DNA of 64,000 bases, taken from Escherichia coli (GTDB lineage: Bacteria > Pseudomonadota > Gammaproteobacteria > Enterobacterales > Enterobacteriaceae). The stretch lies in assembly GCF_030384885.1 (NCBI RefSeq), contig NZ_CP128613.1. One strand, written 5' to 3'. Position numbers and translations under genes: made by a program. This document shows positions 8,421 through 8,574 of this stretch, one piece after another. A model generated the notes under the pieces. It did no database searches. It had not been told where the DNA came from and saw nothing but the letters and a program-made list of their open reading frames with translations. The number at the start of each line of letters is the position of its first letter. Position 1 is the stretch's first letter.

Positions 8421-8574
8421 TTTCATTTTCAAAGTGAAAAATAAATTAAGTTATTTTTTGTAAGTTATTTTGATGATGTTCGACATGCATCACGCTTTTT
8501 ACCGCTTTTGCTGTGCTAGTTTGCTTTCAAAATGAAAGTGAAGATTCTCTTTCTTCATTTTGTAAGGTGAACGA
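8421..8574. promoter_or_regulatory. divergent promoter region with three related TTTCA-N-AAAGTGAA repeats (candidate operator)
   Basis: tttcattttcaaagtgaaaa (8421-8440), tttcaaaatgaaagtgaag (8525-8543) and ttcattttgtaaggtgaacg (8555-8574) in the A/T-rich 340 bp gap between the DeoR gene and the aldolase gene. Confidence 0.35.

Follow-up and report, generated by a model that had tools for sequence, protein, structure and literature searches.

The A/T-rich gap between a DeoR-family regulator gene and an aldolase gene of Escherichia coli contains a set of related repeats that, judging from the sequence, are very probably operators of TagR, the DeoR-family repressor whose gene borders the gap. 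This finding is largely known, since two of the repeats were already predicted as operators in 2025 (Park et al. 2025, Microb Cell Fact 24:158, PMC12226905): the repeat termed here motif 2 is their tagO1, and motif 3 overlaps their tagO2. What is new is incremental and all computational, and comprises the distal motif 1, two extra sites that are better conserved, a five-site geometry that is conserved across two types of gene cluster, and the definition of the recognition unit as a palindrome. A wider proposal, which may hold and which we put forward tentatively, is that five predicted TagR sites, and not two, control the tag promoter. These would consist of an upstream pair (motif 1 and site c) and a downstream pair (tagO1 and tagO2), from which an oligomeric TagR would form a loop over the CRP site and the core promoter, together with a fifth site over the −35 element of tagR for autoregulation, in a layout that would be ancestral.

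The window, that is, the whole stretch of 64,000 nucleotides (64 kb) that was analysed, belongs to E. coli. It is 98–100% identical to E. coli genomes, its gene order and annotation fit the tag cluster, and positions 7400–9500 match E. coli 2013C-4282 at 100%. The same segment is found in about 1420 of 5426 complete E. coli genomes. Of 1422 matches to the tagR-tagY segment, two are located on plasmids rather than chromosomes; the tag island may now and then be carried by a plasmid. Between the DeoR gene and the aldolase gene, the gap measures 340 bp (8253–8592) and is A/T-rich (about 68% A+T), just as the sequence-only reading had described it, and it corresponds to the region between tagR and tagY in the D-tagatose island. 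This island lies between yhdT-panF and accC in the published order, tagK-tagR <> tagYABCDE, and its eight-gene layout agrees with PMC12226905. Along the window, yhdT-panF are followed by a sugar kinase and a DeoR/GlpR regulator on the minus strand and, divergently, by the aldolase, an ABC sugar transporter, a second kinase that is close to the tagatose-kinase model, a DUF4432/aldose-epimerase-like protein, and then accC. The genes that surround the repeats are the following:

6455..7390, minus strand: tagK, sugar kinase of 311 aa in RefSeq and PMC12226905 (longest open reading frame 6455–7465, 336 aa)
7422..8252, minus strand: tagR, DeoR/GlpR-family repressor gene, 276 aa (open reading frame and RefSeq annotation; named TagR in PMC12226905)
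8593..9447, plus strand: tagY, class II tagatose-1,6-bisphosphate aldolase, first gene of tagYABCDE (NCBIfam TIGR01858, 472 bits, above the cut-off of 443.55; RefSeq; PMC9720028, PMC12226905)

TagR holds an HTH_DeoR domain (PF08220, 52.9 bits) and a DeoRC domain (PF00455, 59.7 bits), each above its Pfam cut-off, and its top NCBIfam match is AgaR, with 105.5 bits, below the cut-off of 260. The C-terminus of the protein (residues ~245–276; window 7422–7600) bears a segment conserved in orthologues (Y260, N263, C265, F266, and W268; 'YTxNECFTWSNR'), which lies outside the Pfam DeoRC match (residues 88–219, profile positions 5–136 of 160) and is atypical for the family. The 336-aa reading frame (6455–7465) was rejected as the true tagK, as RefSeq and PMC12226905 use the 311-aa form with its start at 7390. 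The longer form would share 44 nt (7422–7465) with the 3′ end of tagR, and the conserved look of its N-terminal extension in tblastn is uninformative because of this overlap with the tagR coding sequence. The island holds two paralogous PfkB kinases that are ~51% identical, tagK (6455–7465) and tagD (12944–13906), with scores of 348 and 414 bits, respectively, against the tagatose-kinase model, both under the cut-off of 420. The role of tagK has been described as unexplored (PMC12226905). This gene is co-transcribed with the repressor, a tagK homologue adjoins the regulator in every locus of both groups compared below, and TagK might be involved in making or removing the true inducer of TagR.

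The D-tagatose island was described in E. coli Nissle 1917 (Ha 2022; PMC9720028), and its genes were later named as above (PMC12226905). In Nissle, TagR was characterized as a tagatose-responsive repressor through mCherry reporter and overexpression experiments, in which the overexpression of TagR alone shuts the promoter off and tagatose induces it (PMC12226905). By dRNA-seq, transcription was found to start 64 nt ahead of the ATG of tagY and 11 nt ahead of that of tagR; the expression of tagRK shifts only about two-fold on tagatose, and D-tagatose was named as the inducer (PMC12226905). The same study predicted a CRP site (TTCGA-N6-TCACG) and two TagR operators, of which tagO1 (CTTTCAAAATGAAAGTAAA) covers the transcription start and tagO2 (CTTACAAAATGAAGAAAGA) is read from the other strand, in an operator model that is, by its authors' own words, a working hypothesis (PMC12226905). 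Further operators, looping, and autoregulation are not mentioned in that paper, which was the only relevant one obtained in a literature search for further TagR binding studies and AgaR footprint data. Repression by TagR, induction by tagatose, and the mapped starts of transcription come from the experiments in Nissle, and the motif, its positions, and its conservation from the present analysis.

The intergenic region contains the following elements, with both transcription start sites (TSS) placed by homology from the Nissle dRNA-seq data:

8263..8298, minus strand: Preg, the tagR-tagK promoter, with TSS 8263, −10 TATAGT (8271–8276), and −35 TTCAAA (8293–8298); a consensus scan gives the same hexamers
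8286..8303, plus strand: site a, an operator-like half-site over the Preg −35 (ATTTTT-CTT-TGAAAG-TTA), identity 0.92 across eight species, candidate autoregulatory site
8420..8440, plus strand: motif 1, a candidate distal operator (GTTTCA-TTT-TCAAAG-TGA), −109 to −89 from the Ptag TSS, matrix score 16.5 bits, absent from the literature
8450..8467, plus strand: site c, a half-site just upstream of the CRP site (GTTATT-TTT-TGTAAG-TTA), −79 to −62, identity 0.92 across eight species (8456–8467), undescribed in the 2025 paper
8479..8494, plus strand: predicted CRP site (TTCGA-N6-TCACG), −50 to −35 with its centre at about −42.5, predicted in PMC12226905
8496..8529, plus strand: Ptag, with −35 TTTTTA (8496–8501), TG-extended −10 TGCTAGTTT (8514–8522), and TSS A8529; no indel between TSS and ATG
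8524..8542, plus strand: motif 2, the published tagO1 (CTTTCA-AAA-TGAAAG-TGAA), primary predicted operator, −5 to +14, equal to the Nissle tagO1 at 18 of 19 positions, identity 0.91
8548..8569, plus strand: tagO2 (8548–8566, CTTACAAAATGAAGAAAGA on the minus strand, 19/19 equal to the published tagO2), overlapped by motif 3 (8554–8573), leader positions +20 to +41

The region thus holds five related sites, with tagO1 overlapping the TSS transferred from Nissle (−5 to +14). The −10 element of Preg and the right half of the CRP site (TCACGCTTTT) are invariant in eight species, and the Ptag block TGTGCTAGTTT is largely conserved. The Ptag −35 differs at 8501 between Nissle (TTTTTG, as published) and the window (TTTTTA), and either form is far from consensus; this poor match fits a CRP-dependent promoter with a TG-extended −10.

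The three strings on which the sequence-only reading was built, TTTCATTTTCAAAGTGAAAA (8421–8440), TTTCAAAATGAAAGTGAAG (8525–8543), and TTCATTTTGTAAGGTGAACG (8554–8573), are indeed present in the sequence, the last one ending one base away from where it had been placed. As an inventory, however, three copies fall short, as two better-conserved ones had been missed, TTTTGTAAGTTA (8456–8467) in site c and TTTGAAAGTTA (8293–8303) in site a. Motifs 1 and 2 are the only two exact matches to TTTCA-N5-AAAGTGAA in the 64 kb, and a common 13-mer, TTCATTTT[GC][AT]AAG, which was picked post hoc, occurs three times in the window, all of them inside the gap, versus 0.00 expected. Because such exact patterns were chosen after seeing the data, a 21-column matrix was built from the sites equivalent to tagO1 in 10 orthologues outside E. 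coli, which is less circular, and both strands of the 64-kb window were scanned with it. The two best sites in the window were motif 2, with 28.8 bits, and motif 1, with 16.5 bits. As the null, motif 2 was removed from the AT-rich gap and the remainder underwent 5000 dinucleotide shuffles, in which a site of at least 16.45 bits arose at a frequency of 0.002, giving a P of about 0.002 for motif 1. Shuffles of the whole window were discarded as a null, being too lenient because the gap has 68% A+T versus about 49% for the window. Motif 3 as a full site reaches only 5.9 bits (P about 0.17) and is not significant alone; the same applies to site c and tagO2, which are half-sites in E. coli and as full sites are not individually significant (P 0.13–0.17). 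An unbiased repeat search pairs motif 1 with both motif 2 and motif 3, and site a with site c. A matrix match inside tagD (13659–13681, CAGTTTCATGTTGAGAGCTAT, 11.7 bits) was also considered and rejected as chance level, with ~0.7 such matches expected per window and no internal TSS reported.

The recognition unit predicted from these sequences is an imperfect palindrome, (TAA)CTTTCA-N3-TGAAAG(TTA). Only tagO1 and motif 1 keep both arms in E. coli, the latter with a second overlapping register (TTTTCA-AAG-TGAAAA at 8426–8440), while it is mainly the right arm, TG[A/T]AAGT, that survives at tagO2, site c, and site a. In distant genera, on the other hand, sites a and c are full palindromes. The location of site a reads CTTTC-N5-GAAAG in Serratia, Sodalis, and Erwinia (with scores of 20–21 in Serratia and Sodalis), and Budvicia bears a perfect palindrome at site c (CTTTCAAATTGAAAG, score 24.5). 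The description of the repeats as spaced direct repeats fits their better-conserved arm, which has the same orientation at all five sites and explains why direct repeats were seen, and fits less well the unit itself, which reads as an imperfect palindrome rather than a simple 20-nt direct repeat. The tails that had been included in the motifs do not hold up either: GTGAACG of motif 3 (8567–8574) is not conserved (identity 0.36), and GTGAA of motif 2 is GTAAA in Nissle and several other genera. The core shared by motif 3 and tagO2, TTTCTTC(A/G)TTTTGTAAG, is nearly invariant across genera (seven species).

A scan of species-representative genomes by TagR alignment yielded 34 loci, which fall into two groups. 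Fifteen of them (L002–L016) are orthologous, with a TagR that is 52–92% identical and an ABC-type cluster. The remaining 19 (group 2) encode a regulator that is 36–43% identical, adjoins tagK, and faces the aldolase wherever the upstream flank is available; in the one group-2 locus whose content was checked (Klebsiella oxytoca, L026), genes for a PfkB kinase, a PTS IIBC, and an EIIA-HPr protein are found downstream. Site positions in 12 orthologous and 15 group-2 promoters were measured from the invariant TCACG of the CRP site (the anchor, window 8490), with CTT[A/T]CA[A/T][A/T][A/T] as half-site and at most one mismatch. Conservation in orthologous promoters was one of the points on which the sequence-only reading had said that it could be refuted, and most of the repeats are conserved. 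The tagO1 palindrome is present in 12/12 orthologous promoters (anchor +34/+40), site c (window 8456–8464) in 11/12 (anchor −34/−33), with a full palindrome in Budvicia and Erwinia, and the tagO2 half-site in all nine orthologous promoters of Enterobacteriaceae (anchor +62 to +70). Site a (window 8292–8300, over the Preg −35) lies at about −198 from the anchor in this comparison, which includes the full palindromes of Serratia, Sodalis, and Erwinia. Motif 1 (anchor −70/−64), by contrast, is found in only about half of the lineages. It is present in the window allele (and, by matrix score, in Nissle-like alleles), Superficieibacter, Enterobacter ENT03, and K. spallanzanii, and is weak or absent in the other orthologues.

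The geometry of group 2 matches that of the orthologous promoters, with sites at −190, −72, −40, +33, and +65/71 (15 promoters). Both the +33 palindrome and the −40 site, the equivalent of site c, occur in 15/15 of these promoters, and the position of motif 1 is occupied by a site at −72/−73 (−70 in one) in 9/15. When whole 10.8-kb group-2 loci were scanned with the matrix from the first group, the top 6–7 matches all fell within the intergenic region of ~330 bp. The CRP site is much nearer its consensus in group 2 (TGTGC-N6-TCACA) and in Budvicia. That these repeats contain candidate operators of the neighbouring DeoR-family regulator is supported both by published work (PMC12226905), where TagR is a repressor, tagO1 equals motif 2, and tagO2 overlaps motif 3, and by the comparison of the 12 orthologous and the 15 paralogous (group-2) promoters, whose half-sites recur at set distances from the CRP site and the promoter. 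In an eight-species alignment, where one tagO2 sequence is truncated, column identity to the window amounts to 0.92 for site a, 0.92 for site c, 0.91 for tagO1, 0.80 for tagO2, and 0.48 for motif 1, which is thus the least conserved of the five, versus 0.31 for the spacer.

Some of the orthologous loci lack genes of the cluster, whose content therefore varies. In K. spallanzanii (L010), Izhakiella (L013), an Erwinia MAG (L014), and Tatumella (L015), the flank upstream of tagR yielded no tagY. The promoter with the predicted operators leads, in L010 and L014, through a GC-rich leader of 200–250 bp directly into the ABC binding-protein gene, and in L013 and L015 a tagA homologue was not detected either.

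Within E. coli, the intergenic allele of the window is rare, with at least 99% identity in 5 of 1421 genomes and 90–95% in 1412, while the flanking tagR and tagY are ~98% identical among these genomes. This region of the window is about 92% identical to that of Nissle. Allele differences cluster at 8304–8419 and in the centre of motif 1, and the intergenic divergence suggests recombination or a relaxed constraint on the spacer. Hardly any variation affects sites a and c, tagO1, tagO2, and the CRP site in six sampled alleles. Five of these retain the arms of motif 1, GGTTTCA and AAAGTGAAAA, around a centre that varies (ATTTTC, ACTTGC, ACTTGT), and the divergent E69 allele bears a degraded motif 1.

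The patchy conservation of motif 1 is the reason why the published two-operator model, in which only tagO1 and tagO2 are functional, retains appreciable weight, although we regard it as unlikely. Motif 1 would then have no role in regulation, its resemblance to an operator in AT-rich DNA being due to chance or in decay, in agreement with its column identity (0.48, versus 0.31–0.43 in neighbouring non-site DNA), its score of 6.4 bits in E69, its variable centre among E. coli alleles, and its absence, among the orthologous promoters compared, from Enterobacter BIGb0383 (which has a short intergenic region) and four distant genera (Serratia, Sodalis, Erwinia, and Budvicia). The second-best matrix match in 64 kb and a local shuffle P of about 0.002 speak against a chance origin, however, and invariant arms around a variable spacer in 5/6 E. 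coli alleles are the pattern expected of a palindromic site. Moreover, the sampled Nissle-like alleles, which form the major class, score 15.5 bits, the matching position is occupied by strong sites in Superficieibacter (22.1 bits) and K. spallanzanii (11.8 bits), and more than half of the group-2 promoters (the 9/15 mentioned above) carry a site there.

It is very improbable that the repeats are bound by another protein, such as AgaR, whose sites share the CTTTC core, or a general nucleoid or catabolite protein with a preference for AT-rich DNA, for instance Cra, Fis, or H-NS. The helix-turn-helix segments of AgaR and TagR are very similar (VSTVTIRNDL and VSGVTIRGDL, respectively), the AgaR sites of the K-12 aga promoters are built on CTTTC(G/A)TTT, and the region is 68% A+T. 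Nevertheless, the AgaR consensus finds no match in the tag intergenic region at up to four mismatches, and neither of the two known aga promoter regions contains a match to the TagR matrix. The motif accompanies tagR homologues across genera and in two gene clusters, confined to their own promoters, and the overexpression of TagR alone represses the promoter (PMC12226905). A Cra site or a second CRP site at motif 1 was likewise set aside on inspection by eye, with only 6/10 CRP positions matched and the TGAAAC partner for Cra absent. Finally, the idea that the inverted repeat of tagO1 and tagO2, which are 92% complementary over 13 nt and lie largely within the transcribed 64-nt leader, works as an RNA hairpin for stability or translation instead of as a DNA operator can practically be dismissed, as the leader folds no better than shuffled sequences (−11.4 kcal/mol, z = −0.03), the transcript begins within tagO1 and so lacks half of the left arm, and the same motif is also found upstream of the promoter, where it is not transcribed.

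In the best-supported model, TagR would block RNA polymerase in the absence of tagatose by occupying tagO1 and tagO2; we infer binding of TagR to each of the sites. As with DeoR, GlpR, and AgaR, an oligomeric TagR would probably also connect the two pairs of sites across the CRP site. The two pairs are separated by 73–74 bp (from site c to tagO1) in both groups, about seven helical turns, and the sites within a pair are 28–32 bp apart. As the pairs flank the CRP site at this distance, bridging would enclose this site and the core promoter in a loop. The constant spacing could also result from the separate tie of each site to the promoter, without looping. TagR at site a would exert mild autoregulation, which would have to be weak because tagRK changes only about two-fold on tagatose, and the conservation of site a in E. 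coli may be due to the Preg −35 alone. Tagatose or a phosphorylated derivative would then release TagR, and CRP-cAMP would activate a promoter with a weak −35 and an extended −10. The characterized effectors of DeoR-family regulators are usually sugar phosphates, and tagatose-6-phosphate or the bisphosphate would consequently be at least as likely an inducer as D-tagatose. Looping of this kind could account for the reported induction of more than 1000-fold.

If the five-site proposal is true, a layout that is kept in ABC- and PTS-type clusters with regulators ~40% identical would represent an ancestral design and could explain this wide induction range. Thanks to the tag island, B2 strains of E. 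coli, among them many extraintestinal pathogens and the probiotic Nissle 1917, can grow on the sweetener D-tagatose, and the tag promoter is already in use as a tagatose-inducible expression system. The full set of operators matters for trimming or tuning this promoter: the loss of 8420–8467 might cause leakiness, and site a may couple the level of the regulator to induction.

Functionally, the region represents a standard DeoR-family repressor-operator arrangement with CRP co-control. The closest comparison is the Nissle promoter itself (Park et al. 2025), with the same locus, regulator, and promoter, in which motif 2 equals tagO1 except for its tail (GTGAA here, GTAAA in Nissle). That study describes two operators only, read as a 19-nt inverted pair, whereas motif 1, site c, and site a are added here. 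The PTS-type clusters of group 2 (K. oxytoca, Citrobacter, Buttiauxella, and relatives) share the divergent tagK-tagR <> aldolase promoters and the CTTTCA half-site at five matching positions around the CRP site. Unlike the E. coli cluster, they hold a PfkB kinase, PTS IIBC, and EIIA-HPr instead of an ABC transporter, their regulator is only 36–43% identical, and their −40 site conserves the left arm, not the right one.

The multi-operator systems of DeoR and GlpR also combine a DeoR-family regulator with a CRP-dependent promoter and several palindromic operators distributed over about 100–250 bp, one of them over the promoter. Looping by DeoR has been demonstrated for deo of E. coli (deoO1/O2/OE), whereas at the tag promoter it is suggested by site geometry only, and the recognition sequences are unrelated.

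The tag promoter most resembles the AgaR-controlled aga promoters, although it lies outside that regulon. Ray and Larson, who are cited as reference 36 in PMC12226905, are said to have described in 2004 the AgaR operators of the E. coli aga (N-acetylgalactosamine) regulon. The AgaR consensus, which we take to be WRMMTTTCRTTTYRTTTYNYTTKK, was checked on the K-12 aga promoters, and it occurs with 0–1 mismatch at four sites. Membership in this regulon, or equivalence of TagR to AgaR, was considered and rejected, as the consensus fails in the tag intergenic region and the score against the AgaR model NF040755 (105.5 bits) compares with a cut-off of 260. Both systems exhibit a DeoR-family repressor with a similar recognition helix, divergent regulator and catabolic promoters, a CRP site flanked by several operators, and a CTTTC core. 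However, TagR is only 31% identical to AgaR (BLASTP), AgaR sites are runs of TTTC(R) pentamers while those of TagR are palindromes of 15–21 bp, and neither motif detects the promoters of the other.
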